From Raillietiella orientalis (taxonomy: Eukaryota): a stretch of 64,000 nucleotides of DNA. The stretch covers positions 124,001 to 188,000 of the forward strand of contig JAYWIR010000024.1 of NCBI GenBank assembly GCA_036172245.1, read 5' to 3'. Shown piece by piece: positions 1-52,329 of the stretch. A program made the translations under genes and the position numbers. Numbering within the stretch: the stretch's first letter is position 1; each line of letters starts with the position of its first letter. The notes below the pieces were generated by a model. It had not been told where the DNA came from. It did no database searches and worked only from the letters and a program-made list of their open reading frames with translations.

Positions 1-963
1 ATCCCCACATGGAGGATCGACCCCGAGAACTGGGAGTGCATCGCGAGTTTCGAGTCCCATTCGCAGGATGGCGCTGGTTGGCCCACGGACTTCGGGTGCG
101 GCGGCATTGGTTGACACCCGGTCACACCGGAGCATTTATTTAGAAAATAAGCATCCACGTCTGTGATACTGCCACGTGACTTATGGATACGAAAAAGAAC
201 CTTCAGGGATCTGGCACGCAGACCAGCAGGGTTCGCCTCGGCAGCACAGGGGAGGGGGAGACAAACAAAAAGAAAAAAAATGAAGTCCATAACTGGGGCA
301 GGGGGGGGGGAGGTTCGGCAAGGGATCACTGTGTGCTGGAGGGCGCCCTCTGCATCCTTCTAATAATGCCTGCAAGTTCCTGTTTTATGGTTCCCAGAAG
401 GGGCCATCTTGACGCTGTCCTCATGAAGAGGACAGCAGAATAGATGGCGTCCCTGTCGGGAGTATGATGGGTCCCGCCGCGTAGGCAGCAAAGTGCTGCT
501 AGGGATGAGGCCGGCAGAGGGAGTCACACAGGAAGAGGTGCTTTACAACGTCTCTGGCGTTGCCACCGGGGGTTCCAAGGATTGCGGCAAAGCGTCCCCG
601 AAGGGGTCGGAGGTCAGCACAGTCCCCTAGGAGGTTCTGGAATGATTCCCGCTCCCCGCACCTTGCACAGTTTGGGTCCACACCCCTCAGTGTCCACAGA
701 TGCCGGCGGGCGTTACACGGGAGGCCCCAGTGCAGCAGCATCAATGCCGACTCCTGCCACTCTAAGGGGAAGGTGCGGAGGCACTGGTGCAAACCGGATG
801 CCTCCGTTGACCGGTCTGGATTGTAAGTTGACCCTCCGGGTTCCTTCCAAGAATCAAGGAGCCAGTTCCCGTCAGGGTTTTCCTCCCAAGCGTAAGAGGT
901 AAGGACTCCTTCCTCCGGAGTTTCCTGGATTCATAGGGCTTTGGGGTTGCCCCCTCCTAACTT
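1..963 (+). mobile_element. SINE-like host repeat, copy 1 (1-94 and 789-963; head lies outside the window), interrupted by element A copy 1
   Basis: 1-94 aligns with the reverse complement of ~49195-49285, and 789-963 with the reverse complement of ~48023-48495 (lacking ~290 bp present in copy 2). Both copies end at the same point (CCTAACTT). Confidence 0.55.
112..771 (-). mobile_element. Element A copy 1: short L1/Tx1-like LINE 3' fragment (ORF2 C-terminal zinc finger + 3'UTR)
   Basis: Minus-strand translation LEWQESALMLLHWGLPCNARRHLW...CARCGERESFQNLLGDC (zf-RVT-like), T-rich 3'UTR, terminal AATAAA+hairpin at 115-140. Flanking direct repeats GGTGCGGCGGCATTGGT (95-111) and GGTGCGGAGGCACTGGT (772-788). 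Confidence 0.85.
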
Positions 964-1882
964 CAAAAGTTCTGCGCAACTGCACCCTCGGATGGAATAG
1001 ACACCGACGTGAAAACCGACGACTGCTCGAAGTGGATTTCTCTCTCTCTCTCTTTTTTTTTAATCTCAAGCATGATCCCTTCGTCTACTGCAGCTCCGTT
1101 CAGAGAATTCTGCCAGGTTATACACGGACGCACGCGCGATCTTGTTTGCAGTTCCTCATTCGGAAAATTTCGGCGCAGCTTCCCAAATATGACTGAATTT
1201 TTCAAAGAGGCTACTCCTCTGCGGGAATTATTCCATGCTCTGAAAATTACCAGGTGCTTTTCGAGCGCTTAGGAAGTCAGCATTTACTTTCTCTAATCGT
1301 CCTCGCGGTCCGCATTATGACCTCACATTTGAAATTTTGTCATGCACTGGACAGAGTCCATGTACCATCCGATGTAGGATGGTAATTCCAAGGTTCCAAT
1401 ACACCAGTTTACTACAATGGATGAGATTTACCTGCTTCTGTATGTATTCGTAGGAAATGGGTTCGTGGGTATTGAAAATTTCGGTTCCATCTTTTGAAAA
1501 TCCAGTACATGGAACATCAATGAGGGTGCACTGATTCTTAAGGAAGGTGCGTCGATTGATCCCTGATCATCTCCGCACCTTTGTTGCAGCTTTAGAAACA
1601 TCCCGGAGAATTTCTAGGAAATTTACCGACGCAGCACTGAGCGTGAGTGCCGATTATGCGAACGCACAGCAGCACGGAGTAATTACCGACGGCAGCGAAT
1701 TTTTGATTCTGCACACGATTTGACCGTTGAAGTTTCCAGGAGTTACGGGTTGACGGAGTTATCAGTATTGGAAGGCAAAGGGTTTTGCCGCTTTTGCTTC
1801 CCAGACACCTGTTTCCACCAGGACTTGCATTTCAGAACGAATCTTTCGATCCGAGGTCACGACCTCCTCGGAATTCGGAGGT

Positions 1883-3206
1883 TGCCACCCGGGTACGCCG
1901 GGACGTTTATCAAAACTTTCTTTTACGTGGTATAAGGCCCCACTAACGGCCAACACAACACCGGTCCTGCCGGGACGCCGGGACGCAGCCCGGCGTGACT
2001 CTCCTCGGCAGTGGAAGGGGATGGGAGAGAAAACAAAAAGAAAAATAAAAACATAAGGAAAACAAAAAGAGTTTGGAAGGGTGGGAAGGAATCACAGACC
2101 ACCGAGAGGAGGGTCCATCCTTTGCAGGATGCCCTCGAGGTCTTTCTGCATACTACCCAGCTAGGGCCATCAGGAAGCACACAGCATACGGGATGACGTC
2201 CCTCACGTTGTGGTGTTCGTCCTTGGCCTCACTCCAAGTCGCCACGATGCCAAGGATGCAGCAAAGTGCTGTCGGGACTGCGGCTGGCTGCAGGACGTCC
2301 CGCACGAAGAGAAGCCGGAAAACGTCTCTGGGGAGGCTGCCAACCGGTATCCCCAGGGTAGTCCCAAAACGTTCCCAGAGGGGTCGGAGGGCAGCACAGT
2401 CAGCTATCAGGTGGGGGAGGGATTCCCGCTCCCCGCACCTGGCACATTCAGGCTTTACTTTCCCCCGCGTCCAGTGGAAGCGACGCGCGTTGCAGGGTAG
2501 TCCCCAATGCAACAGGAGAAGCGCTGTCTCTTGCCACTTCAGGGGGAGAAACCTGGATCCATTCAAGATTGGGGACCACTTCAGTTCATCCGTCGGGATT
2601 CCGAGCAGCTTGCCCCATCTTGTTAGTCCTCGCGGCTGGACACTCGTAGCCGTGGCGTCCACCAGCTGTCCCATGGTCCAGCCGCTGATCAACGTCTGTC
2701 GTCCTGTGATGCGGCAGGAGACTTGCCACTTCGGCGTCCGGGTGCTGTGAAGCGCCCTCCTCAGAAAGGGCAGCGCCTTAGCCTGGCAGGTCGTCTCTGC
2801 CCACGTGCTCTTAGTGGGACACTCTAGTATGTGCCGCAGGGTGCGGCCGCGTATTTACATCTCGTGGCTTCTCTGGTTGATTACCGCCCACGTGCCAATG
2901 GTCTCCTACAACCAGGCGGAGGAATTGGCGGGGCTGCAAACCATCCAGCCGTTTTCCTTAGCCAGGGTGGCCATGCGTCCAAGGAGAAGGCCGCATCTTC
3001 GGATCTTCCAGCCAAAGCACAAGATAAGACGCGAGTCCTTGCGTCCTAGAGACACGGTTGGCGAGGAGGCGGGCCGGAACGCACCAAGGGGTGCTCCACA
3101 ACTTCGCTGCGATGGCCATGGTGCGCCATCGCAGCTGTATTTCCATCCGCTCCAGCGTCAAGAGGCTGAGACCGCTGTCCCGACGCGGAGCTCATAACAT
3201 CTTCAG
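1883..3206 (-). mobile_element. Element B: 5'-truncated L1/Tx1-like LINE (post-RT region, zinc finger, 3'UTR)
   Basis: Exact 14-bp TSD CGGAATTCGGAGGT at 1869-1882 and 3207-3220. ORF 2153-2692 contains WGLPCNARRFHW...CARCGERESLPHLIADC. RDSGLSLLTL near 3160-3185 resembles the post-RT GGLG motif. Ends with GATAAA+hairpin (1886-1911). Confidence 0.9.
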
Positions 3207-6094
3207 CGGAATTCGGAGGTGAAAGAGTAGCACGTTCAATCTTAAACAGTGAAATCGTGCTTTCAGCCCAAATACTTAACTTGGGAATGATAGGGCACTC
3301 CGCTGCTCTTCGCATCCGAAATGGACGGATGGAGTTTTGACTACACAACACTGTGTTCAGTGTTGCTCTGCTGCGAGATTATCACCAGCGTGTGAACTTG
3401 CCTTGTGGCATTCTTTGCTCGTGGCACGACGCGAGGATTCTCAAAGTGTCCTGTGTGAATGCCGGTGGGTAACAGTGGCAAACTTCCCACATTAAACTCA
3501 TGAAGATAAACGAATTTCACTGACCCTTGTAACGAGCCGCATATTCTCCCGACATGGAACTTCTTCGCGAAGTCGTGTAGCACCATAATCATGAAGGTGC
3601 AAAAGTGCAGCAGGTACCGAGGGTGCTGACGGCGTTCTTGTATTCCCGATTCGTGAATTCAACATGCCCTGCACACACGCTTGTCAACAACCACCGCACC
3701 TTTAAAGCTGTCGTACCTTTTCGAGCACGATTTGGGACCGTCCTGTCACTCGATTCTTAGTACTTTGCCTTTTCCTGCTGTTTCCCACGTTCATGTCGAC
3801 CGATCCGCAGGCAGTGACCCGAGTCATCCCTAATCCGTTGAGTTGCACGCGTAGAGCATCTGCTCTTACTCGGGAAATTCGCATCCGAGGTCTTCGAAGA
3901 ATAATCTGCCAACTCTCAATACGAACGGCGGGATGTCTGCCTTACTGAGAATTTGTCTTCTCTTTTTGGCTTTTTGCCGAGACCCGGTTTGAAACGGAGG
4001 CGTGCTGCCCCAAGTGTCGCTTATCACCTCAGGCCGGGCATGGCTTCCTGAAAAGCAATCTCGTCACGCTCGGGGGACGTTCAGAGAGGTCAGCAGATGT
4101 CCGGTTTATCAGTCTGGACACTGTCTGCTCACACGATCCGGTCTTTCGGCACTCGGCAAGTAGTAGTCCTGGAGCCTGGAGCAGAGTCTGCTTGGGTCCA
4201 TCAGCGAAAGCCCTCGAGTGCTCGATCGAAATCCTCATCATCGCCTCGTCCAGAGCTCCAGACCGGCGAAGCCAACCTACCGTCGATGCCTACTTGATAC
4301 AGGAAGATATACTCGGATGCGCCTCGTTTCCGGCCAGAACAGCAGGAATGTTCTGTCGGTCATTTTGGAGCTAGCAAATGCAACAATCCAAGTCAATCTG
4401 TCTCTTTGAGCTCTGGAGATTCACTCTCACCATAATTATGACACAGAAACGGTCTTTGGCGGTCGTTCCTCCTCCTCTATTCTTCGCTGTGCTCAAGTTG
4501 CTTGGCGGGCAGTCTACAAAAGGGTTCGTTTCTGTAACCCCGAGGAAGACGTGCCTGCCATGTAACAGGTCCCGGCATTCTTCTTACGGCTTTGAGTTTT
4601 ACGAGTTCTGGTACCACCATCCGTACAGAGTGGAAGAGAGTCAATCTTCCGTGAGGATTCGTCTGGTCAAGACCACGGTTCCTCAACAGCCTTCTTGGAT
4701 AGTCAAAGAATCAGCAAATCGGGAACGGAAATCAATGTTGCTTTGCCAACTTCCTCTCAAGAGCTTCGTCGCTGCACTCCTCCTCCCTTTCCCTCCAGAG
4801 TTCACGAAAGAGGTGTGACGTTGGAAAGCGGACCTCACCGTCGTGACTCAAGCTTCGACAGCTGGAGGAATGTTTATCGCCCTTCTTAATATTTGATTGG
4901 AACTCTAAGGATTTGCGCCAATTTTTTTTTTATTTATTTATGGATGAACTGCGAACATATTGCGGAAGCCCTGCCGATATCAGACCGCATTTGCTTGTCA
5001 TCCAATGTGGGCGTTCAACAAATGGCTCTTGAAATCTCGCTAATGAGGCACATTCTTTTGCTTATCTCGAGAAAGACTCCACCCTCCTCTCGTCCGTACG
5101 CATCCTTCGTTTCGAACGTGTCATTTTCCCATCTTCTGAGAAATGCACGTTCGAAATGCAAATACGGAAATCTGAGTGAACCGAAAAACGTAAAGAGGGG
5201 CGTCATGCGTTTTCCGAACAGCGATGAACAAATATACGATGGAAGAAGGAAAAAATCACCTACTGAACTTTAATACTACCAGTCTTGAGAAATCGGTATT
5301 GTAGATCCCTTCGCTTATTATGAGTAGAGGTTCTGAAACCTCATGCTATTAAGTGACGTCGTTGCAATACCTATCTGGGAAGAGTCTGAGAATCTCCATA
5401 TGTGGACCATTCTAAAAATAACCGAATTAACTTTCCATCTTTTGAAAGTGTATCACGTCTGCTCATCTAAGGGCACATCAGTATTGCCAGTATCACTCGG
5501 TACGCTGCACAATTACAGCCTTGCGCACGGGCAGTATCATAGGCGAGGAAGGCGACTGAGCCGTGATTATTGCTAGTTGAAAACATTACAGCAAGCATCT
5601 CAAATTGCGCGTTTACATATCACGGCTGGTGTTAACCAGCTAGAAAGAAAATTTCAAACGAAATTACCAGTTATTATGATTATATCATTAGCATAGAAAT
5701 GCAACTGGCAATTTCCTTTGAAATTATATCCATCATTATTCTATACATCAGCATTATTATGATTTCACATTTACATTTGTCTATGTCATTGTGATTGCTA
5801 TCTTCACCATCGTTTATTATTTTGGCGTTTTCGTTTCCGTTATCATTATTGCAAAATGGCCAGATTTTTTTCGAAATGCAAGGACTTCAGATTTCCACAT
5901 GAAACGCAGCTATCTCGTTTCAGGAGGAAGGCGTGGAGTCGATGACAAGCTGTCAAGGTTACCGGAGGTCGAAATCTTCAGAGCGGATAGCGGGAACACG
6001 CAGAGTCCACAGTGGCTATTACGATTCCAGAACCATTTTGAAAGAACTTTCCGCTAACATGTTTTTCGTCGTGACGCGTGTGCCTTACCTGTAG

Positions 6095-6411: not shown

Positions 6412-6906
6412 AAGGTGCACAACAAAATGGGGTGAATAACTGAATGATCGTCGAAACAGAAGCGAACGCAGAGACAGTATCTCCATCACTCGGAGATTCA
6501 TGAGGTATCATCGATGACGGTCTTAGACATTGGTTCCATCTTCAGATGATTTGAGACTACTATCACGGGAATGTGAAATTTGATCCAGCACGCCTCCATT
6601 TGGACGAAATTGGATATTCCCCTCTCCCCTCACCCCGAGGGACCTTGTTATGGGGCATCACGAGAAATCACTCAAATAATTCGTTTTCTGACCGACTTTC
6701 CCGCACACCACGATCATCTGCAGCTCGCTCAGCGTTTTTTCCTTCCGTGCTGGTTTCCTGATTATCTGGATTTCACGCGGATCGCTCTTGAGTAGCCTTT
6801 TGAAGACCATCCAATCCTGGATTTCGCTGCCTGAGATGGTGAGGAATCAAAGAGTAGATGCCTCCTTTTTGCTCGCAGCTTCCAGCCCAGGCAGTCAAAG
6901 ATTGCT

Positions 6907-7084
6907 GTTTTTTTTTTTTTGTCCCCCCTTACCCCTGCTGCCGTGGTGGACCGTACAGGTCTGCGAACCGGTGACCCGGCAGGCTCCAGGTTGTTTCTTC
7001 GGGCGTGGCTGGATCGCTGGTCCAGCCACAGCGCGTTTTTAAAGTTTGTTTTTTAAATAAACGCCTCGGCGACCCGGGTGAAAA
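6907..7084 (+). mobile_element. 178-bp LINE 3'UTR-only insertion related to elements A/B
   Basis: Exact 12-bp TSD TCAAAGATTGCT (6895-6906 / 7085-7096). T tract, CTGCCG...CGGCAG stem, terminal AATAAACGCCTCGGCGACCCGGGTG + A4. Confidence 0.85.
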
Positions 7085-10000
7085 TCAAAGATTGCTCGGT
7101 GCCCGCTTGCATCTTTAGGTCTTGACCTTCACTTCCTACGCTGACAAAGTCAGAGCGAAAAATTCCTTTTCTAAGCCTCCGACTTTTCCGTCGAGGGACA
7201 GTCGATGAAGATGTAGTATGCACAAAAGTCTCATTCGCGACCCTCTATCCTTTCTTCCGGTAGGCTGTGCCAACTGGAACCAGTATCTGGAACAAACGAC
7301 GCCTGGACAGGCAAAGTTCACTTCCACTGTGCATCAGTGAGTTTTTGTGGCTGGTCAAGACGGACGCCTCGATCCTTGGCTCTAATTTCGAGACAGCACG
7401 AGGAAGCGTCGAAGGAACAAGACGGGCAGACGCACAGGAACCGCTCCTCTCGGGAGGCTGAGATATCTCGTCCATTGTTACTGGATGTTGATCTCGATGT
7501 CCGTCCACCTTTCATCTTCCCTCCTTGGCTTTGCTTGCTTGCGCGTCCAGCTCTCGGTCGAGTTGGAAGCACACCCGCGTTTTGACGTGCTCTTCGCTCG
7601 TTGCTATGGGAAACGAGCGTCCCGTTCACGAATTTATGGACGTTGCGGCTTTGTCGGTCGGCCCGTGAAACGCATGGCTCGCCTGCTTTCCCCCCGTGCT
7701 CTTCCTTTTTCCTCTTTCGGTGATTCCGGGCTAAAGCACTTGAATTGCCGTTTCCTGGCAGTTCAAGTGCTGCAGTTTCACTTGACGCGGACTGACGCGA
7801 GGAACCTCTCGGAGACGCCCTGCAGAGAATGAAAAATCAGTCTTCAAAAAACTCTGATACTTCGCGCAGCAATGGAGACGTCTCACGTTGCCAAGCTCGC
7901 ACATCCCCCTCCCCCCCTCCCTTCCCTACCGCACAACAATGGAAATCTCCTGACAGTTTCGATAGGAGCGGTCGGATCCATTGTTGCACACCCATTGTTG
8001 TCGCTACTCAGGAAGCTGAGCAACCGGAATCCGCGCCGCAAGGGAAAGGCCTTCGGAAAAAACGCCTGGGCCACAGGAGATTTGACCGCAAACCGCGATG
8101 CGGCCAGGCGGGCGAATTCGCGTCCCCACTGCGTCCTAGCCCCCCGAGTACTTTCGATCGAATGGGCAAACATGGGATAGCAGGGTTGGGCTGCTTTCCG
8201 CTTTCCTCTTGCAGCGGCGGCGGCCTATGCCGGCCTTTGCTCTTTTCGTCCGGACCGAGCGAAACGTCAGGAGGTCACTGGTTCGTGAAATGCGGGGGAT
8301 CGATGCACCTCGAGAAAGAACCAGACATTTGCGTTTTCCTGATGACATTAGATTTGTCTGGAGCTTATCGCACCATCTGCATTTACCACACGCATCACGT
8401 TGATAATCATTTATAAAAACGAGGGACACGCCCAAAAAATGCATGTTAGTTCAGTGAGCTCTAAGGAAAGTGAGCTTTCTTTCCGGAGGAGGGTTCGTTT
8501 TCCAGGTAAACCCTGCGTTTGACCGAGCCCACTTGTTCTCACACTGTATTCACTCTCGATACCTCGCTCTCGTAAAGATCAGCCTGTGGCTTCCGTTATG
8601 CCTTTCTAAAGTGTGTCAGTGAATCACGTTAAGGCATGGAAGCCCAAACCTTGTTGCCGTTCTCTCGTTAGATTACCGCTTCGGGAGGCAGTGGTGACCC
8701 TCGGAGCACCGGGTCTCGCGTCTTGCACTGCTCCACACTTGCTGAAAACCGCTCTTGGGGGAAAACGAGCAGAGATTCTTTCTTTTTTTTCCAATTGAAC
8801 GGGATCGCAGCGTGCAGAAGTGGCCGTCTGCCTCCTCCTATGTGTTGTCCATGCACTGGGCATAAGAATGCCGGACGAAGAGTGCGTAGAAGGACCCAGA
8901 ATGCCTGTAGCAGGAGAACCTATAGCAGGAAAAGCGAAGGTTCGGATTCCGTCAGCGTGGTCTTCTGCAAGACAAGAGGAGGAGGAGGAAGGGAAAGCGA
9001 CTGCTCTTGCGGGCACGCGCCTTTCGCCTTAGTTCTTTCGCTGCTTTCTTAGCTGTATCCAAGAGGAATCCGGAGACCCACGACGGTGCCTTTCCTTGCC
9101 CGCCTTGCTTCCTCACGGCTGCTGACGTTCGGCAGTGCCAGGATCTGTACGAAGCCTCCTTTCGTTCATTCTGTGGATTCTGAGCCACCTTCTTCCTTAT
9201 CCTCTCTAAGGAGGGGGAGGGGGGCGGCAAGTCTGTCGCAAGCATGTTCAGAAACCTGGCTCGTTCCATTCGTCCACCCGCGTTGGCGACCTGGAGTTAC
9301 CTCACGGGACAGCTAGCGTAGGGGGGGCGCGAATACCCGTGAAGCGGGCCGACACCGAGAGATGAACCGAGAGTTTACGGTCCACCCCGCTAGATGAGGC
9401 TGAGGCTGCGGGTGTGCACTGTTTAGACGGATGCCCCGTTGACTGTAGCAGTCAGGGACTGGGAGTGGGCCCTTCGGCGAACCCACCTCACGAGTGGTCC
9501 TTGGGTGCGTGATGTAGTGAGGCCTTATGAGACCCCATGTAGGGTTGTTGCAGGGCCACTATGGGGTGGACGACCGCTCTTGCTTACTTAGCGTACCTCT
9601 CCCCCCCCTCTCAAGGTCACCTCAGCGGCGTGCTTCTTTCGCCTCCCTTCTTCCTTCCCAAGCTGAAGACACGCGTCCTTGTCTCCCCCCCCCCCCCCCC
9701 AACGCACCTAGAGAACTTGAAGCTGCGAGATGCACGCGGCGGCGCCCGGAGGGAAAAAAACTTTTCGCCCTCCTCCCCGCAGCCACCTTCGGGAAATTTC
9801 TCGTCCTTCGAGCGGAATCGAAGTCTCTGGCTGCCTCCGAGAACCCCTCAGGCACTCGTAGTGGTTTTTCCATTGAGCCCTCTTCCCCCAGGCGGCATAA
9901 AACTTGCTGGAGGCGCGCGCTGCACCCGCTTCGCTGGCGCCTGAGCGGGGTGCCTGCTGCTCGAGACTCCTGGCACCCCGAAATAAAAGGGATGAAGTCC

Positions 10001-11532: not shown

Positions 11533-14500
11533 ATGCTGCGCTCCTGCTGCACCACCTGCTACATCTTCGTTGCTTGCCTCGTTGGAGCTCACGCTGGACT
11601 GGAGCGGGCAGACAACCCGCCCATCATACTGAGTACTGAGTTTCACCCCTTCGTCTACAGGCCGCACGCGCGCGCACTGCGACGGCGGCCGCGACAAAAA
11701 CGGTGCCGTCGACGAAGCTGACGGCAGCCGGCTCCCTTCCTTCCTCGCTGGAGCCCGACCCCAGGTGGTCTTTCGGTCTGACGGCAATGAAACGAATGCG
11801 CGCCGAGTCGCGCGCTCCAAGCGACCACTGCTTGAAACACCCGCGCGCTTTCGCCGGGGACGTTTCTCTGCGCGTGTGCAAAGCTCACAGGGGAGTTCCG
11901 CATCCCATGGAATCCACACCGGGCGGGTTTCGCACCCACAGCGCAGTCACGCTGTCCCGAGGAAGGAGTAAAAGGGAGAGGAGGGGTAAGGAAATGGAGA
12001 TTTGGTGGTGGCATGCAGGAAGGGTCACCGTATCTCATATGCCCCCCCCCCTCCCGGAGGGTTCGCGAGCTCGACGAGGACGATTCCATCCCTGGTCTGC
12101 TGGGCCGTTTCTCCGCCTCTTGCAGCAACGAGGTTGCCGAAGCAACGGCCTCGCGGCTACGCTGCCCTCCTGCTTGCACGTGACTCGGCTCTGCAAACGT
12201 AGAGCAGCCATGGGGGCGCGGAGGGCCTTCTTGGGAGGCCCTCCGCGCTCGTTGCGGAGTCAGTTGGCTCCTTCCTGTAGAAGTCCAGGGTCCCCTTTTT
12301 GCGGCCCAGCGCGGGAAGAGAGCAGTCGCGTGCACCGCCTACCATCCGACGGAGGAGCGCGGAACCGTCGACACGCCCAGAAACGGTGGTAGCAGAGGAT
12401 GTCCAAGGAGCCCCGCCCGCCGATGAGCCGCTTCCCTTCGCACGGATGCTCGGAGTCGGCCCGCTGACTCCGCGACCACCCACCAAGGAGTTTCCGCCCC
12501 CACAGAGCCGCGCCTGCCCCTGCAACTGCCGCGCACGGTTCCGAACCGGCCTCCGAGTGCTCCGAGTTCGCGCTTCCCGAGCTCGGGCGGAAGTGCCTCC
12601 TGCAAGTGTGCGCCCAACCTGCCATGCGTAAACGTTCTGTGCGCGTGTGGGCGGACTGACAGGTCGTGGCGCGTCCAGGCTGCGCGGTGAGCGCCGGCAC
12701 TGCCGCCCCTCGCGCGATTCGGACGTGACGTCGTTGTAACCGGTTCACGGTGAATACGAACGGGCACCGAGAAAATTTCGGGAACACGTGCTTAGAGAAA
12801 CATACGAGCGAGGGAAAAAAAGTCCCTCCGGGATTTCCGTGCTCGGTTCCGGCCGCAAACCTGTCGCCGCCTTCGGCGGCGCTGCCGTATCCTGGCGCGC
12901 AGCGTCGGGCGGGTTTCTCCGGGCAGCGACAAGCGGCAGTTGCAGGGGCAGCACTGCCATCTGCCGTTGTCCCTGACACTACGATGTGGCTGAAGGGGGG
13001 TTGCACCTCTGCAGATTCGCACGTTCGACCGCTGCACGCATGCGAGCTGGGGCCACAACCCAGTACCCCCGTCCCACCGTGCTCCGCGAGGGGTCGCGCC
13101 ACTGATGGCCTGCGGTCGCCCCGAGAGATGCCGAGAGCTCCTCAGCACCCTCTCTGCGCGGACCCTTAGTCTTCGGGTGTCCCGAGCTCTGTTTGCAGCC
13201 GACGGCCGCTCGCCCCACGGGGGCCGCCACTGCGCGTGCGCCGCCTGCTCAACTCTGGTGCGGACGCGGACGAGCGCCCCCTTCCCGCATTCATTCCCGG
13301 AGGAAGATTTCGCGCCCACCGTGCGCCCCCCTTACGTTTGCGTTTTCTCGTACTAAGTGTACGTTCGCGCGAAAGCAGTCGAGTCTCTCCAGGGTGGACC
13401 CGGTGCTGGCGATCAGTTTGACCGTCGAGAGGTTTCTTTTCCGTTGTCCGTTCGCATTTCGGCGTCGGCGCAACGCGCATTCCCCTTCTGGCATGATCGT
13501 GAATTCTCGGACGAAGGTCTGCCGGGCAGCAGCGCTATTTTTTAAATTCTCGAGAGTTTCCCGAGAGACGGGCTTGGAGGTTAACGCTCCTTGCATGGAG
13601 CCGATGGCTACGTCACATGAGATCGCAGCCATGGCGTTTGCCCACTCTTTCGCAACGAGAAATCGAAGCTTCCCTCAAGGTCGCGCCAGCAAGCAGACGA
13701 ACCTGGGGAGGGGCAAAAAAGTGCAATCTGTCGGCAACGACTTATCAGCGACTTGTACAGTTCGCCAGTACCGAATGTAATCATCCGGGCCGGGGTATGT
13801 ACAAGCGGAATGTTTCATCGCCGTTGATAGCTCAGTGATGATGCCGCAGGCATCAGTGGAAAGCGGGTGAAGGAATAGGGGAAACGATAGAGGTGGTGGG
13901 CGGACTCGAGCCTATTATTTACGCGCACGAAGCCCTGTAGGAGGACCTTTGCAGCAGCAGCAAAGCACTTCCGCAAGAAAATCCAGAAAGAATTCCCTTT
14001 TTTTTCCTTTCTACCGTTTTCGATCGATCCGGATGACGCGCCCCAGCATTGTTGAAAAAATTGGCGCCGATCGCGGCACCCGTGCTGCCAGCTGCCGAGG
14101 GAGCTTCGAAGCGCGGAAAGGAGGGTCCGCGCCGCCCTTCGCATGATGGGGCAGCGCGGACCCGCCCTGTCCTCCGGCGAATGAGGTCTCGCCCACGCAA
14201 AGTCGTCGCCCCCGAGGGGCGAGCGGCCGTCTGCTCGCGGGTGCCGTCGGCTGCAAACAGAGCTCGGGACACCCGAAGACTAAGGGTCCGCGCAGAGAGG
14301 GTGCTGAGGAGCTCTCGGCATCTCTCGGAGCGACCGCAGGTCATCAGTGGCGCGACCCCTCGCGCAGCACGGTGGGGCGGGGGTACTGGGTTGTGGCCCC
14401 AGCTCGCATGCGTGCAGCGGTCGAGCGTGCGAACCTTCAGAGGTGTTACCCCCTTCAGCCACATCGCAGTGTCAGAGACGGCGGCTGATGACGGAAAACC

Positions 14501-20500: not shown

Positions 20501-23500
20501 CTTTGATGGAGGCTCTCCTGTGGTGGAAAGAGACGTACTACGCGCCGAGTCTTACCCGTGTTTCTGAGGTCCGACGTGGCTGACCCCAGGGAGGAGCAGG
20601 CGTTTTGAGTAGGCGGGAACGGGGTCGCACTCCAAACTGCGCCGCCTCGGTTGTGCTCACGCATGCCCATGAGGGCCGGTCACTTACAGCGGGCACAGTT
20701 GTTCCTCATCCGGACTCATCGTCCGGTCGGCTTTGCGAGGTGACGAGGTTTCTCGTGGAAAGTTCTACATAACATTATTGCAAACTTGTCCTGTGGCTGG
20801 CCTGGAGCCTTCCAGCTCACGGCATCCTAATTCCTTCCGAGAATGTGTAGTTTCCGGTCTCCGGATCCTTCCGGAAAAATGTCTTTTTGTGGACACACAA
20901 CGTATCCTCCAGCAAAGACTTGGGAAATTCAGGCTCCCAAAGGATACCTTGGTTTGGGAACTTTCTATTTTCACTTGTTTAGAGCCGATACGAGCGCTAT
21001 CTCTGAATCTGCCGAGAAACTGCACGCTAGAAGCTCCAGCGACGTTTTCCATCTTCGGCTGCACGGCTCGGGCCAGTCGGGCGCAGGGGTGGATCCGGGA
21101 GAGCAAAATGCGGGTGCCTCCTTCTCTCGACCTCCGACAGCGGCAGCTGGGCTAGAAGTCACTGCAGTTCTTTTCGTGAAAAACGAGTGCCCCTGCAGGC
21201 GATTTTCTCGACATCTCGACAGTGGCCAGGAACGAGGTCGTTCTGCCGGACTTATGAGACCTCCTCACCATCTGCACTGCGGCTGAAGAACCTACCTTGC
21301 GGAAGGCACTGGCCGCGCACTAGAGCTCGCGACGAATGCATTCCGGAAGATTCGGCAACCCCTCCACGTGCAAGCCGCTCCTCCTCACCACCCTCATCGC
21401 CATCATCCTTTCCTCCACACCACTGCCAAACGCCATCGTCACCGCTATCACCACCACCACCAACTTAATCATTACACATCCTTAGCACCACACCACTCTC
21501 ATCGTTACACATCTCTACCACTACCGCCACCATGACCACCACCACCACCCTCATCGTCACCGTCACCAGGATCCTCACCATAAGAACTTCGCGCCATCAT
21601 TACTTTCGTCACCGTCACCACCTCTTGCTATTCCACCGCTCGAGGACTCGTCTTTGCTTTCCTGCCGTGCGCGGGGCCGCGCTGGCAGCTCTGCTGGGGA
21701 CTCGAGAGGGTTTGGAACTTCCGAAGGGCTCTGCCGCAGTAGTCGCCGGCGCGCTTTGAGATAGGGGAGTGGAGCAGCGCAGCATGACGCCACCTCCCCG
21801 GAGTGCACACCGCGGCCCGCAGCGAGTGGGGAGTGCGCACGGGTGGAACGCGGCACGGGGTGCGTGGGTGCATGAGGCAGAGATCCCTCCGAAGAGCACT
21901 GGGAAACTCGCACGCACACGAGGGCGGGGGGAGTGGTTGGGGATTCACTGCGCTTCCGTCCTTCGCCGTCAAAAGGAGAGATCTCGAAGCCCCAGCATCC
22001 CCTGCAGGGAGCATCCTTGAGGAGAAATGCCGAGAAAGAGGGAAGGGGAGGGGAGAGAGCCGAGATGCTGTTCGGATCCTACAGCCCGGGGCTACCCCCG
22101 CTGGGGGGAGGGGACACCCACCTCCAAACCCTTCCGCCGCGACTGGCGCGGCGAGGCACGAAGCCGCAGTCGTGCGATCCGTTCCCTGCTGCCGCCCCTG
22201 AGGTGCGGGGGCAAGCAGCGAGGGGAGCGGAACGGAGGAAGGTCAGGATCGCAAAGAGAAGGAGCGGGAAGCGCTCCGAACCGAAGCCGCGACTTGTGGT
22301 CCACCACAGCCGGGACGTTCACTGGACGCACCTGCTAAGACACCCCCCAAAACGACAGAGCGCACACCTGCAGAAGACCACCAACCTGGTCACGGCGGAG
22401 GCGACGACACTTGCGGCCTGAGGAGGGAAAGGCTGCGGATTCGAATCCGGCCTGCCGAACAGCCCTCCGCGTCAGAGCTCTGTGTCAGCAAGAATGTCTG
22501 CAGGGAAAAATCTCTCCGTGGACGTCACCCTGGAGAGGACGCAGTTTCCCTAAAACCTGGTTTTCATGATGGCTTCCTCTCTGTCCCCGTCTAGAGCAAC
22601 GAATGAGAAGGCTCGCGCTCTTCCGACAGCGCCACGCGTGCACCTCGCCTCTCCCCTCCTTCACCTTCCTGCCCTTTCGCTCCCAGATCGAAAACATTCG
22701 GCTGGAGTTCGACAACGAGACCAACACCACGTCGTCTAGTCCCGGAATCTACGTCAGAACCTTCGGGTTCGGGGACACCGACTCGGTGGAATACCTGGAC
22801 ACGATTCACTTTTCGTGGGCGGAATACATGTGGATCATCGTGCAGTTCTTCGTGGACCTGGGATACGAGCGGGGTCGAAGCATCTTAGCCGCTCCGTACG
22901 ACTTCCGCAAGGCCCCCAGTGAGCGCCTCTTCGGCGTCCTTGCCGTGCCTCATGCGCTGACTTCGATCCCTCGTGACCTTTCTCTTCAGATGAGCTGCAG
23001 GAGTACTACAGCGACCTGAAGGAGCTGGTGGAGGCGGCAAGCGCCGCCAACGGGGGCCGCAAGGTGGTGCTCGTGTCGCACAGCCTAGGTGCACCCGTGA
23101 CGCTCTTCTTCCTGCACAGCATGACGCAGGCCTGGAAGGACGACCATATCCACTCCTGGGTCACTCTGTCCGGTGCCTTCGGCGGTAGCATCAAGTCGAT
23201 CAAGGTCATGCACTGTGGTAGGCCGGGACGGAGGGGGTCCCGCACGGCATGCACCTGTCTATCCTCCCAGGGGACAACATGGGCATCTTCTTCCTCTCCC
23301 AGTGGACCATGAGGGACTTCGAGAAGTCCTTCCCCAGCGTAGCCTTCCTACTGCCTTCCGAGAGGGTGTGGGACGACGAGCAGGTCATCATCTCCAACGA
23401 CGAGCGCAACTACACGGTCCGCGATCTCGAGGACTACTTCCGGTAGGCTCTTCGCTACTATCCGCCGTCCCCTTGCCCACAGTGCCGTCCGCGGGCGCGA

Positions 23501-23944
23501 CCCGCAGCGACATCGGCTACAGCGAAGGGTGGAAGCTGAGGTGGGCGACGAAGGACCTGCTGGGCGACTACGAGGACCCCGGTGTGGAGGTGGTCTGCTT
23601 GCACGGCGTCGGAGTGGACACTCCCGAGAGGTGAGATGCGGCGCCGCGCGTTTCCCCGTCGTCCTCGCCAGCGGGCGCCCAGGCTGCTCTTCAAGGGCAA
23701 GAAGTGGGTGTCATCGGCCCCGGACGTGGAGACCGGCGACGGGGACGGGACGGTGAACCTCCGCAGCCTGGAGTTGTGCAAGCGGTGGAAGCTCACCTCG
23801 TCCAAGATCGTCTACCACGAGATGTTCCCGGGAGTCACGCACCAGAACATCCTGGAAGACCCGATCGTGCTCTCCAGGCTTGCGGAACTCTTGCTGGGTA
23901 CCACCGCTGGGAGGCACGCGGCGTCGACGGTCCAGAGGGAATAA
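11533..23944 (+). CDS. PLA2G15: Group XV (lysosomal) phospholipase A2 / LCAT-family lipase, paralogue 1, 7 exons, 420 aa
   Basis: Exons 11533-11632, 19979-20124, 22687-22918, 22990-23217, 23271-23442, 23508-23630, 23683-23944; all GT-AG, phases consistent, 1263 nt. Signal-peptide-like start, PIILIPGDGG oxyanion motif, YC...NCF disulfide pair, APYDFRKAP, SHSLG nucleophile, GDGDGTVNLRSL (Asp), GVTHQNIL (His). Exon 1 linkage across the 8.3-kb intron is inferred from phase, motif completion and paralogue 2. Confidence 0.9.
12956..14492. repeat. Long inverted repeat (arms ~12956-13206 and ~14243-14492, ~1 kb spacer) in intron 1
   Basis: Arms are reverse complements with roughly 90% or more identity by eye. 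The ORF track gives near-identical translations on opposite strands (13105+ versus 13919-). No TSD found. Confidence 0.9.
16712..17422. mobile_element. AT-rich MITE-like element with 18-bp terminal inverted repeats
   Basis: AAATCCCGAACGATCATA (16712-16729) and TATGATCGTTCGGGATTT (17405-17422) bound a sharply AT-rich non-coding block. CA flanks both ends; internal partial copy AAATCCCGAA near 17061. Confidence 0.7.
21380..21620. repeat. Degenerate (CAC/CAT)n trinucleotide tract
   Basis: Runs of CACCACCAT/CATCGTCAC. Similar tracts occur at ~24430-24530 (GTG strand), ~28340-28480 and ~29800-29980. Confidence 0.7.
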
Positions 23945-45084: not shown

Positions 45085-46440
<1,356 letters not shown>

Positions 46441-48022
46441 CTGACTTCTTACCTTGTGTCTGATCTCGCTGTCTAATGCATGAAACCTCTTATTGAGACT
46501 GTGCTTGCTTGAGTCTTTGAACATTTATAGCTACAGTCATAGATTTATCTACTTTGAAGTGAAAATATTTTCGTTTACAAGTGTTATGAGATAAATGCAT
46601 TGTGTCTTCATGGTCAGTTATTGCAGTACATTGTGGATACAAGTGGAATATCTCAAAAGTGCACTGCTATATCTACAGGCCACTTGGTGTATCGTACAAA
46701 AAAATATCCATTCATTTGCTGCATATCCAACGAAATCAGGTTCTCCGTACATCATTTATTGTTGAGGGGATATGCTTCTGTAAATTGTACAATGGTTTAA
46801 TGTGGTTTTAGATTCAGTTTGTGTGTATTAAAAATAAAGTAGCAGAAAATCAAAGCTTTAGACCTAGAAAATAATAAAGTGCTATTGGTATTAATGGAAA
46901 TAAGCATCTAATAAATCGTTATGCAAAGCAGCGATCATAAAAGATGGGTTCTCAGTAGCTAAAGGTTTACAACAGGCTTCATCCTCACATGAAAGATGAA
47001 CTTGGAGCAATTCAGGAAGCAAAGAATACTTGACGCCCAATGTTGATTTTGCAGGTTAGATGCCATGCAGTTGAGATAGGAGGCAAATTCTCATCTGTGG
47101 CAGGTGGAGATTCCCAAGCGAAAAATCTGCTGTCGAAGCACACGACAACCCTGGACAAACATTCGCCAATTTTTCTCATTTTTGCATTCGCTAGTCGCTT
47201 CTCCTGCGATGTCTGTCACTCCTCCCTTTGTAGAATTGCTGTACGTGACTTGAGATCCGGTTTGTCTTGTGTCTCTCGGCTGCAGACGTTTGGATAACTG
47301 TGCCTTTCCCGCAGTGGATTTCAATACGCTTTCGTGCTGAGCAGAACTGTGGGAAACGGGCATCAGAAGGGGATTGGCGCCGCCCAAACCCTTTTGTGCT
47401 CGGGGCTGTTCAGCCCGAGCGTTTCAGTTACAGCTGCACAAGAAGCATCGAGTTCAGTTCTTTGCTGTGAATTCCAGAACCATTCCGACCTATCGCAGCA
47501 CTTGTCTTTCGGTCCCCAGCGGGATAGCCGACCAACGATGCACCCTGATTTTCAGGCTTGTTAGAGCTTTCTCGGCGGCTGATGTACGAATAGTAAAGCA
47601 TGCGGGCGACTTCCCTCATGTCTTCGCCGCTTTAGCAGAGAAACGAGAATGCTAACAACACACGAACAGTGAGGTGATAATGCTTTTCCAGGAAATATGA
47701 CGAGCCGCATGTACTCTGCTCGAATACGTGCATTTTCCAAAACGCAGGGGTTTTTAAAGAAACAAAAAAAAATCAAACCTTCACAGGGACGAGCTCAGAG
47801 AAAGAAAGAGTCGTGTGGAAAAAAAAGGCATAGCGCACTAAGATTGCTACCTACGAGAAATTAACTCGTAAAAGGCTGCATCTTGAAAGCATCACAGGGT
47901 GAGCGCCGTTGGCTGAAACTGTCACGAATTTTTCCGGGCCAAATTAAACGTAGCATCCTGTCTTCCTCGTGGTTTACTTTCAGAACCATCTGCCTACTAA
48001 GGAAGTTCAATGGGATTTCTTC

Positions 48023-49337
48023 AAGTTAGGGGGTGATCCCGGGAGGGGACCACCCTATGAATCCAGGAAGGACTCTGGAGGAAGGAGTTCGTTCTTCTCA
48101 CGCTTGGGAGGGGAACCCCCTTCCTTATTCTCTCCGGAGACACCCCTCCGGTTTGTGGCAGCCGCTCCATTCTTTCGTTTCTCCTCCGAAGGGAACCCGG
48201 AAAAGATACTCTCTTGGAATTTCTTCTCCGGAGGAAACCCGCACGGGAACCGCTCCTTGTTTCCTCCTCTGAAGAGAACCCCAAAGGGACGCTTCTGAAT
48301 TTGCTCTGAAGGGTCGCTCCCCCCGCTTCACATTCTGGAGAGACATCTATCCACCAACTCCATGGTACGAGATGGGAGGATCACCCCACTTGCACAACCA
48401 GAAGGAAACCCCGAAAGGTTCCTTGATTCCTGGAAGGACCCCAGAGGGTCAACTTCCAATCCTGGACACTCATAGTAGGCATCCGGTTTTCGGCTTCCAC
48501 CAATGCCGCACCCTCCCCTTAAAGTGGCTGGAGTCGGCGTTGATGCTGTTGCAGTGGGACCTCCCATTCAGCACCCGCTGGCATCTGTGGACACAGGGTG
48601 TGGGGATCCAAACTGTGCGAGGTGCGGGGAGCGAGAATCTCTGCCGCACCTCCTAGTGGACTGTGTTGCCCTCCTCCCCCTTTGGGGATGCTTTGCCGCG
48701 ACCCTTGGAACCCCCGGCGTCAACACCAGAGACGTTCTGAAGAGCCTCTTCCTGCGCGGCGCCCTCACTCCGGCCTCATCCCTAGCAGCACTTTGCTGCC
48801 TACGCGGCGGGACCCATCATACTCCCGACAGGGACGCCATCTATTCTGCTGTCCTCTTCATGAGGACAGCGTCAAGATGGCCTCATCTGGGAACCATAAA
48901 ACAGGAACTTGCCAGCATTATTACAAGGGTGCGGAGGGCGCCCTCCAGCACACAGTGATCCCTTGCCGAACCCCCCTCTGCCCCAGTTTTGGACTTCATT
49001 TATTTTCTTTTTGTTTGTCTCCCCTTCCCCTGTGCTGCCGAGGCGAACCCTGCTGGTCTGCGTGCCAGATCCCTGAAGGTTCCTTCTCGTAGTTGTAAGT
49101 AATGTGGCAGTATCAAATGCCCTGCCGCAGACGTGGATGTTTATTTTCTAAATAAATGCTCCGGCGTGACCGGGTGTCCACCAGTGCCGCACCCGAAGTC
49201 CGTGGGCCAACCAGGGTCATCTTGCAGTGGGAACTCGAAGCAGCGATGCACCCATCCGTCTCGTCGACCTTTCCCCTGGTGGGATTCGAGCTCGCAAGGC
49301 TCGGTGCCACGTGCGGGAGACCGGCAGCCACACGGCC
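48023..49337 (-). mobile_element. SINE-like host repeat, copy 2 (tRNA-like head at 49337), interrupted by element A copy 2
   Basis: Minus strand begins GGCCGTG-TGGCTGCCGGT (A-box-like at tRNA position 8), with GAGCTCGAATCCCAC (degenerate B box/T arm) at ~49279-49293. Homologous to window positions 1-94 and 789-963. Confidence 0.5.
48514..49176 (+). mobile_element. Element A copy 2: short L1/Tx1-like LINE 3' fragment
   Basis: CARCGERESLPHLLVDC zinc finger, frameshifted upstream. 18-bp TSD TCCACCA(A/G)TGCCGCACCC at 48496-48513 and 49177-49194. Terminal AATAAA hairpin 49151-49176. Inverted homologue of 112-771. Confidence 0.88.
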
Positions 49338-52329
49338 GCCGGCGCGGACGGTTTGCTAAATTCCAAGGAAGCTGTAGAATCATAAATGCGCTGAATGATG
49401 GCATAGATGGGCAGTCGTTTAAACCAATAGTCTGCCCTATAAGTTTTGCTTATTTAATCGAAGCTTCCGTCTTAACCTGGACTTTTAAGCGATTTTGCAA
49501 CCAGTCAGATTTTACGTCCCGGCATTTATTTCAAGAGCAGGTGTAAGAAACTGTGAAGAATGAGGTCATATGGGGTGGATGGCAGAGGATTCATTCTTAC
49601 AGGCTAGATATTTCTGACGGTGGAAACTACGAAGCAATTCAGTTGCAAGTTATTGAAGATCGATACGGATCTCCTTCAGCAAATTTTGCGAGATGAATTG
49701 CTTACACGACTGATGGAATTTTGTGCACAGCAAGGGCGTTTGGTTCAAACGGTGGTATGGGTATAGGAACTGCACGCGATGCAGAATTCTTTGAAAACCG
49801 TGCACTTCGTGAATGGGAACACTGGGCAAAAACGGACGCCATAAACTGCCAACATTAGAAATCACTTGCTATTCTTGCATGATTGCTACGCCAAAGTAAA
49901 CGAACAACAACGAAAAAAAAAAGAACGCTTTTTTGAATCGGTCGCATGTGTGGTGGTGAACTTTGGATCAAGCCAAAGAAACTCGGTAGTCAAAGGAAGC
50001 TGAGCACTGCGAGAACCAGAAGCTTCGACTGGAACCAAAGGTGGAGGTGCACGACGGTCTGAAGTGTTGCACGCAGGCTTCTTCCTCGTGTGGTCCTTCC
50101 ATGGCGCGGAACACACCACTTTCATCCTGGGAGAAATGGCGACGTCTCTCGTGGCAAAGTGTGCTCGTGGCAAAATCTTCCTAACCGTCCAAGTAGACGA
50201 AAGTTTCACAGAAAGGATCTACTGGAACTTTTCAATAGAAAATGAAGACAACGAGCTTTTGTTATTCTGAACTCTGTACGACGGCATGTTTTATTATATA
50301 GAAAGGAAAGCCCTCAAGGTAGCAGTTTTACACTTTCAGAAGGCCACGACGCGGAGGCTTGAAAGACAATGTAAAGTATCTGGCTGAGTGGCAGACTTAT
50401 TCCAGGTTTATAGAAATGAAACCACCTCAGTTTCTATGGAAAGCTCCCATCAAGAGCATGCATCTTGCTGTAGTTAAAAGGTTCTGAATTCCCATTGGTA
50501 CTCTTACGCTACTTTTTTTTTGGGTAACAGGCAGGGAAGCATGAGATGAAAACTGCCACTCCGAGCAAGAATGCATTTGCAGAGAACAGTTTGGGAACCG
50601 CTGCCATGGTACGTTTCCGAGTATCCTCAGGCAGTTGCTTCGTCGTAGCGCTAGAATCAGCTCGCAGGAAATCAATCTAGAAACGGCGAAGTCCCTCTTG
50701 CTTTGGAAATGTCATCCGAGCGGTTCTCGAACAGGAGCTCGACATCTGAACCACCTCTCTAATCTTTGGCTTTCTCCTGGCTTTATCAGTTCGACTATTA
50801 TTGCGAAAATGGTGAGGGCGTGCAAAAGCACAGCAACACCGCGTGAAAGTCTCCAAGAGAGGAGCACAACTGCGCGTTTCCAAGCGACTCACTGATGGAG
50901 CCCAGGAATGCTCCTTGCCATTCCTCGAAGTCAGAAACGGTGGAAGCGGCCATTTTCTGGAAACGCCGGCAAGGGGCGACCCTTTTCCCGATCGATCCAA
51001 AGATGGGAAAAGCGGCGCTGGGACGGCAGTCACAACGGATAAGGAAGCATCGCAAATAACATAATTTGTTGCATATAGGGTCCATTCCAGGAAGACATCT
51101 GGAGAGATTAGGCAAGTGGACAAGGAGGAAAGAAGTGTGCGTAGCAAAATCAGTATAAACGGTTTTTGTTTGCTCTTGGACAGCGCGAAGAATAGGAAGG
51201 AAAAAAAAAAAAATAATGCTGATTTGACGCGACTTATTCCCCATAAAAAAAATTCTTAAACGTGCACAGCTCTGATATATATGTATTTTTTTTCCGGTGT
51301 GTATGCGTGCGTTACAAAGCGAGAAAGTTCCAAGCACCCATAGAATTTCCTATACAAAGAAGGTACAATCGACCGCATGGATATCTGCGAAATGGTAAAA
51401 TAAATCGGGAATACTGAAGTCCGTACACATCGACACGTGAGGATCAGGTCAGGAGTCACTAGCACGAAAGGTGGGAGCGTGCAACCCACCAGCTACGCGC
51501 CCCAAATGCACGGCTTCCACGTCCACTGCTCACGCTGTTCGATGCGGACGCGAGTAGGGCGCAACGAGAACTTCCGTTTCCGGCACAGCTGTTCTGCTTG
51601 TGTTTGGATTTGCTCTTCGTGTACTGAACGCACTGTGCTGTCCATTAAATTCGGATCCGCGAACGGAAACGAGCGGGGCTATATAGTCTCCTTCGTCTCT
51701 GCACATCCAGTTTTCTTTACCGACCTCCGGTGCATTAGAACTGCTCTTACGATCCACACCGAAGGATGGGTACACAAGCGAACCGCCCATCTATCTGACA
51801 TTTGCATCAGCCCGTTTTTGTGATAACATTTAGAAAAATGGGGGTCGTGGGGAGTACGTACGCATGGAAGGAAGCGTGCGCTTTTGTACGAAATGAGTTC
51901 CCTTCGAATCCTCTTGGCTCCTTCAAAATGCTTAAGGAGGATAGGAGTTTTCCGTGTGTGTGTGTGTGTTTAATTTGATCTGACCACTCCGTTTTTGTGC
52001 GGGCCCAGTCACTGCCGTTTTTCCAGCACGGGACCCAGACTCCTCGACGACCCCATCTTTCGTGGGTGCGGATCCGAGGATAGGGACTGCCCCACTTCCT
52101 CGGGTCGCACATCCACCTCAAACTCGTGATCAAAACGAGCAAGGCGAGTACACCAAAAGGGTGTACACAGAATGTGTCTGCAGCTCCAGTTAAGAAGTGG
52201 GGCATGGAACTTCCTTTCCTCTCCCTCAAGTTTAGGTCCGTAAGCAAAAGTGAGAAAAGTACATGGCGAAGAAAACCGAAAGGCGCCCACGCCATGCCAG
52301 AAAGCAAAGTAAAAATGGAGTTTGATTTA

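Follow-up and report, generated by a model that had tools for sequence, protein, structure and literature searches.

A 3′ fragment of an L1-like LINE at the homologous position of two diverged repeat copies in Raillietiella orientalis: a single insertion followed by duplication as the favored account

In a stretch of 64,000 nucleotides from Raillietiella orientalis (contig JAYWIR010000024.1, positions 124,001 to 188,000; hereafter, the window), the same LINE fragment, which we call A, sits within two diverged copies of one repeat, which lie in inverted orientation ~48 kb apart. The initial annotation interpreted this arrangement as two independent, site-specific insertions of a non-autonomous element that targets a SINE, and offered spread of the composite as one unit as an alternative. 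It is this alternative that fits more of the window data. With moderate confidence, we favor a single insertion event; the filled unit would then have been duplicated, and its two copies partially homogenized at a later time.

The alignment of window positions 1–1100 with the reverse complement of 48000–49400 consists of one block with 724/847 identities (E=0) and a second block with 56/66 identities. The inserts, A1 (112..771, minus strand, 660 bp) and A2 (48513..49179, plus strand, with the start at 48513 or 48514), are 87.4% identical across 672 columns. The initial claim that they have the same two ends is confirmed, both 5′ ends falling on the identical LINE nucleotide, and the alignment of the two related flanks places them at the homologous host position, as had been proposed. 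For the 3′ end of A2, previously set at 49176, the better placement is 49179; the boundary is ambiguous by 3 nt because TCC is present on both sides.

The copy 1 flank 3′ of the insert, on the host “head” side (1..94, plus strand), is truncated by the window start, and differs from the reverse complement of 49195–49290 by 12 mismatches at 85 aligned sites and seven gap openings; nhmmer pairs positions 4–103 with 49283–49185. The head side of copy 2 spans 49194..49345 (minus strand). On the 5′ side, the host “body” of copy 1 (789..975, plus strand) differs from copy 2 at 16/81 and 16/93 aligned sites, and homology between the copies stops near 975. The body of copy 2 (48020..48498, minus strand) contains ~300 bp (about 48119–48416) that are missing from copy 1; TRF finds no tandem array in this body. 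Beside the 300-bp block, the hosts differ by a 7-nt indel next to the insertion site, immediately 5′ of the nick. The repeated unit is thus bounded on one side only, near 975 and 48020, respectively; on the other side copy 1 runs into the window edge, and homology may extend past the window start.

A1 is a 5′-truncated 3′ fragment of an L1-like LINE with a broken ORF2 frame. A2 is the same fragment with the ORF2 C-terminus in an open frame (48479–48955, stop at 48956–48958), followed by the 3′ UTR and a terminal hairpin; in total, A comprises the last ~147 codons of ORF2 and ~220 nt of the 3′ UTR. A CCHC knuckle, C-x2-C-x7-H-x4-C, is found in A1, A2, and a longer relative in the window, element B, and a terminal CCGG-loop-CCGG hairpin of five pairs is kept in A, B, and a third element, C, with poly(A) absent. 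Covariation support for this hairpin was considered and rejected, as none of the five pairs covary.

The only Pfam match is zf-RVT (PF13966), which stays below the curated cut-off of 27.5 bits for both A2 (E=0.079, 14.1 bits) and B (E=0.01, 16.9 bits). An exhaustive HMMER search with the 233-aa frame of B yields 12 proteins at E≤0.001, 11 of which have zf-RVT at E≤0.01. The best match (E=1.6e-6) is P0001, a LINE relative of 87 aa, which shares 41 of 81 residues with the ORF2 C-terminus of A2; the matching region takes in the segment encoded by the invariant hairpin block described below. Another relative of B’s ORF, P0011 (1253 aa), combines Exo_endo_phos, RVT_1, and zf-RVT, and 23 of the 30 nearest Atlas clusters are zf-RVT. 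Based on the motif, the sub-threshold zf-RVT matches, and the relatives, both A and B have the ORF2 C-terminal zinc-binding domain of the L1 superfamily. Judging from these sequence features, A is a 3′ fragment of an APE-type LINE of the L1 superfamily (L1/Tx1-like). With their broken frames and absence of coding constraint, the elements in the window are dead relics.

Further searches indicate a LINE family nearly without relatives in public protein data, the best match reaching ~50% identity across about 57–81 residues. Word-indexed protein searches with the ORFs of B and A2 and with P0001 return nothing at E≤0.001, a PDB sequence search with the ORF of B gives no match at E≤10, and no loci related to P0001 were confirmed in genome contigs or viral contigs. 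In metagenome contigs, exact 24-mer searches gave zero occurrences for both the 3′ end of A and the invariant block. Neither RVT_1 nor Exo_endo_phos was found among the 236 stop-to-stop frames of at least 110 aa in the window, where all copies are 5′-truncated and hence uninformative about an autonomous element. The Tx1 origin given in the initial annotation is putative.

The target-site duplications provide the strongest argument for the initial interpretation. In copy 1, both duplications, read directly in the element sense, are 17 nt long and differ at two positions: ACCAGTGCCTCCGCACC at the 5′ end of A1 (772..788) and ACCAATGCCGCCGCACC at its 3′ end (95..111). In copy 2, they are 14 nt long and differ at one position: ACCAATGCCGCACC on the 5′ side (48499..48512) and ACCAGTGCCGCACC on the 3′ side (49180..49193). 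Direct reading bears out that 3 extra nucleotides are present in both duplications of copy 1 and absent from both duplications of copy 2. This co-variation is the sole real argument for independent insertions: a single insertion requires that a short GCC repeat changed by 3 nt twice, in parallel, within one lineage, whereas independence requires one pre-existing host polymorphism. From the observed indel density, we estimate that it favors independence ~10- to 15-fold, a figure that does not come from a computed test and is insufficient against the other data. The mismatches between duplications (3/31 positions) suit a young insertion as well as an old one, being compatible with any age from about 4% to 18% divergence.

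The same position of the duplications is A/G in both copies (99 and 776; 48503 and 49184) in the opposite configuration: copy 1 has G on the 5′ side and A on the 3′ side, and copy 2 has A on the 5′ side and G on the 3′ side. Two mutations at one duplication site are required under either model, and neither accounts for this pattern; the position may be a hypermutable site.

Comparison of the divergence of the insert and the flanks gives, at first glance, a younger insert, with 66/650 substitutions in the whole insert vs. 44/259 in the flanks (p=0.0066) and four vs. 12 gap openings (p=0.0002). However, the insert is a mosaic. The first 255 bp of A differ at 46/255 sites (18.0%), as do the flanks at 44/259 (17.0%; Fisher p=0.82), and the remainder of A differs at 21/395 sites (~5%; p=3e-7). 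The best change-point is position 255, within the insert, and 0/2000 permutations match either statistic. Since the flanks and the 5′ part of the insert are equally diverged, there is no divergence step at the 5′ junction; a step inside the insert is what a common history of flanks and insert predicts, if followed by homogenization of, or constraint on, the 3′ part. For this reason, we rejected older flanks as a proof of independence: a low-divergence block, which begins within the insert, dominates the whole-insert figure. More generally, such mosaic divergence calls for caution, because the identity of a whole insert compared with that of its flanks can falsely suggest a younger, independent insertion.

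The low-divergence block of A2 (48770..49082, plus strand; copy 1 counterpart about 203–515) has 11 substitutions in its 313 bp relative to A1, and its stretch of 113 bp at 48770–48882 has zero differences between A1 and A2. As RNA, this invariant block folds more stably than any of 200 shuffled sequences (z=-5.15; opposite strand, z=-3.88). RNA-structure selection on an active element could be an alternative to gene conversion in explaining it. A perfect 9-bp hairpin, GCTGTCCTC-TTCAT-GAGGACAGC, is located within the block at 48848–48870 (413–435 in copy 1), nested in a longer stem. The bases of the hairpin also code for part of the protein (…FMRTASRWPHLG), and P0001 conserves this part. In element B, 14 nt are missing at this position, and there is no such hairpin.

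Two other explanations of the mosaic were rejected. It is not a CpG artifact, as the non-CpG sites still show 14.2% vs. 5.3%. Nor does it reflect coding constraint on master copies, since the differences between A1 and A2 are spread evenly over codon positions (16/18/18; 18 synonymous, 34 non-synonymous), and the part in which A1 and A2 are most diverged is the best conserved one between A and B. The codon pattern is that of neutral decay rather than divergence of coding masters. The first 30 host bases past the 3′ duplication (49185–49214) contain no substitution, which at 17% divergence has P=0.004, in a post hoc comparison.

The relatives of A in the window are found at other sites. Element B (1883..3206, minus strand) is a 1324-bp 5′-truncated copy of a sister subfamily, flanked by a 14-nt duplication, ACCTCCGAATTCCG (1869–1882 and 3207–3220), and element C (6907..7084, plus strand), 178 bp from the 3′ terminus of a more distantly related subfamily, is flanked by a 12-nt duplication, TCAAAGATTGCT (6895–6906 and 7085–7096). 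A weak fourth fragment of the LINE family, D (about 58744–58935, plus strand; nhmmer E about 1e-7), adjoins a CT-rich low-complexity tract. Since B and C occupy unrelated sites with their own duplications and have differing 5′ ends, the wider family inserts dispersedly. Thus, the unrelated sites and variable 5′ ends that the initial annotation set against targeting are seen in the sister subfamilies, but not for A itself: in the window, 2/2 A copies are at the homologous site, and B and C are elsewhere.

The targets of A and B have a common bottom-strand context, GGT^GNAA; the motif GGTGNAA occurs 51 times in the window, which points to a short nick preference rather than a unique address. The initial annotation also saw in both A copies the same internal shortening relative to B. 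A gap of 24 columns is indeed common to both, but A also has 14 nt that are absent from B, and the homologous part of B (1884–2546) is of approximately the same length as A. As far as these sequences show, A is merely a shorter 5′-truncated copy relative to B. The 3′ parts of A and B are about 41% different, compared to 30–33% elsewhere, the 5′ part being the best conserved.

The host repeat had been described as tRNA-headed and SINE-like. For the tRNA head we found no support: ARAGORN predicts no tRNAs in the window, and none in either head even at thresholds of 90, 80, and 70%, and Rfam gives no tRNA match in 47900–49500 at E≤10. The head side of copy 2 has only a B-box-like motif, an 11-mer, near 49270–49285. 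The end of the host (…CTAACTTGAAGAAA, near 48020) is unlike the 3′ ends of A, B, and C (…CCGGGTGTCA and similar), so that a SINE 3′ tail common with a partner LINE was not found among these three, the sole LINEs compared.

No further host copies are detected in the window by nhmmer at E≤1, and its self-BLAST yields only eight repeat pairs. Both host copies are filled, hence empty hosts number 0/2. Other ACCRRTGCC sites were considered as empty hosts and rejected, the four extra 9-mers being in unrelated contexts. An imperfect direct repeat (10/13) flanks copy 2 at 47996–48008 and 49361–49373; the estimated chance expectation is ~0.2. A multicopy SINE-like host is thus a proposal drawn from two filled copies, and its SINE identity is putative.

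Several other features were observed in the window. Two LCAT-family (PF02450) genes, at 22570–24000 and 38247–40700 (plus strand), are arranged in tandem about 16.8 kb apart, and share an 860-bp segment with 97.3% identity (22971–23829 vs. 39771–40630), which reflects either recent duplication or gene conversion in the region. A GC-rich stretch contains an inverted repeat of about 249 bp with 94% identity (12958–13206 and 14243–14490), its arms being about 1 kb apart. The frame at 46109–46441 (plus strand) matches the C-terminal part of the Ras family (PF00071, E=6.6e-13); it lies about 1.6 kb from copy 2 and probably represents an exon of a small GTPase gene.

Under the favored account, a 5′-truncated L1-like LINE, APE-type and with a stringent 3′ end without poly(A), would have inserted once by target-primed reverse transcription, with a bottom-strand nick at 5′-GGT^G-3′ and a second nick 14–17 nt away yielding the duplication. 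The flanks, both duplications, and the insert would then have been copied as one piece, inverted, to a place ~48 kb away, either through movement of the host repeat together with its insert or through a DNA-level duplication. Both copies would have decayed neutrally to ~17–18% divergence with many indels, including the 300-bp flank difference, and the 3′ ~400 bp of the insert would have been homogenized later, most likely by gene conversion between the copies or from a third member of the family. The 3-nt difference would result from two parallel slippage events in the short GCC repeat.

Directly observed are the build of the copies with their duplications, the mosaic divergence, and the location of B and C at unrelated sites; the order of events, gene conversion, and parallel slippage are what we infer from these observations. 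The identical 5′ truncation and site need no added assumption, as they are automatic for a single insertion, and we count the LCAT-like pair (97.3% identity across 860 bp) as supporting regional context. On the other hand, the two parallel 3-nt events have an estimated probability of a few percent, inferred from the indel density, the lower divergence of the whole insert demands an added homogenization event, and homology stops at about 975 and about 48020, as it would at the end of a discrete element; the imperfect direct repeat around copy 2 counts on the same side. As for the route of copying, the host-sense strand carries a TTTT run inside the insert in both copies, which speaks against a pol III SINE transcript as the vehicle of the filled unit.

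Independent insertion at the same site, in which a fixed-length non-coding LINE derivative would have been mobilized in trans into two hosts already differing by 3 nt, appears less probable. It would explain directly why the 3-nt state co-varies in both duplications and why their sequence end-point is the same despite lengths of 14 vs. 17 nt, and it is consistent with the lower divergence and far fewer indels of the whole insert, the structural differences between the hosts (the 300-bp block and the 7-nt indel beside the site), and the duplication mismatches, which suit a young or an old insertion. Tx1-clade LINEs and their dependent SINEs are also documented to prefer particular transposon families (PMC4494074). 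However, the 5′ 256 bp of A are as diverged as the flanks, with the change-point off the insert boundary; to accommodate this, the 3′ ~400 nt might be the part recognized by reverse transcriptase, with the 5′ 256 nt drifting in the master copies, a tentative proposal. The strong structure of the invariant block and the terminal hairpin kept across A, B, and C agree with it, but between A and B it is the 3′ part that is less conserved (about 41% vs. 30–33% different).

In addition, the window contains neither empty hosts (0/2) nor A copies outside this site, B and C are inserted elsewhere, the 7-nt indel separates the hosts right beside the nick, on its 5′ side, neither a promoter nor anything else that would fix the 5′ end is apparent, and the host is unproven as a SINE. 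A more specific version, in which A, derived from an undescribed L1/Tx1-like LINE, non-coding, and fixed at ~660 nt, would home to one site of a SINE-like repeat, with both nicks set by sequence rather than distance and an invariant, strongly structured 3′ RNA domain recognized, seems to us slightly less probable still. With nicks so set, the duplication length (14 vs. 17 nt) would follow the 3-nt polymorphism of the target.

Far less likely is homology-driven spread between pre-existing hosts, with endonuclease specificity not involved. The conceivable routes, all of which we regard as improbable, are the ectopic gene conversion of an empty host by a filled one, or a read-through transcript with host flanks that is reverse-transcribed and anneals to another host; for the latter, the same paper considers co-transcription of target-specific elements with their targets (PMC4494074), but such read-through transcripts are hypothetical here. 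Both junctions are identical, the 30 bases at 49185–49214 are free of substitutions (P=0.004, post hoc), and the mosaic itself is what exchange of, or constraint on, a part of the insert would produce. Nevertheless, a filled donor would bring its own duplications, leaving the 3-nt co-variation unexplained, and a divergence of 18% marks the 5′ part of A as old, so the insert was not transferred as a whole in recent times. The variant that limits cDNA-mediated or ectopic conversion to the 3′ ~400 bp, with a younger family member as the donor, is likewise improbable.

What the finding means depends on the reading. On the likelier one, that of a single insertion with subsequent duplication, this is routine genome decay, in which the surroundings of a dead, nested LINE fragment were copied together with it. 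If the inserts were independent, a SINE-like repeat would be added to the known targets of site-preferring LINEs, and target choice could be studied with a compact, non-autonomous element whose RNA domain is defined. Homing, if true, would mean that a derivative of a LINE parasitizes a SINE, in an organism whose relatives are nearly absent from public data.

In many respects, A, B, and C resemble ordinary 5′-truncated insertions of the L1 superfamily nested in a repeat that was later duplicated: the duplications are 12–17 nt long, the truncation is variable (A, 660 bp; B, 1324 bp; C, 178 bp), ORF2 ends with the C-terminal CCHC (zf-RVT-type) domain, and the copies decay neutrally after insertion. 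The nick site of mammalian L1 is A/T-rich, in contrast to the GGT^GNAA context seen here. Unlike ordinary L1 insertions, the copies have no poly(A), and end with a short hairpin followed by GTGTCA, GTGTCC, or GTGGCA; the co-varying 3-nt difference in both duplications of two copies is also unlike them.

The site preference of Tx1-clade LINEs and their dependent SINEs for transposons is already described. According to Kojima (2015; PMC4494074), Tx1L targets the Tx1D piggyBac, and Tx1-Mar, together with dependent SINEU families, targets Mariner-N4_AMi; in crocodilians, a non-autonomous partner and an autonomous element have a common target. For SINEU-3, 77 of 88 truncated copies are flanked by the Mariner element, independence thus being shown from many copies, and membership of the Tx1 clade is assigned by RT phylogeny using RTclass1 (PMC4494074). 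Likeness to these target-specific LINEs would consist in the recurrence of a LINE-derived element at a single position within another mobile element. The present case differs from them in that there are only two known insertions, identically truncated, whose flanks have diverged as much as a part of the insert, the sister elements B and C are located elsewhere, and the RT domain is absent from the copies in the window.
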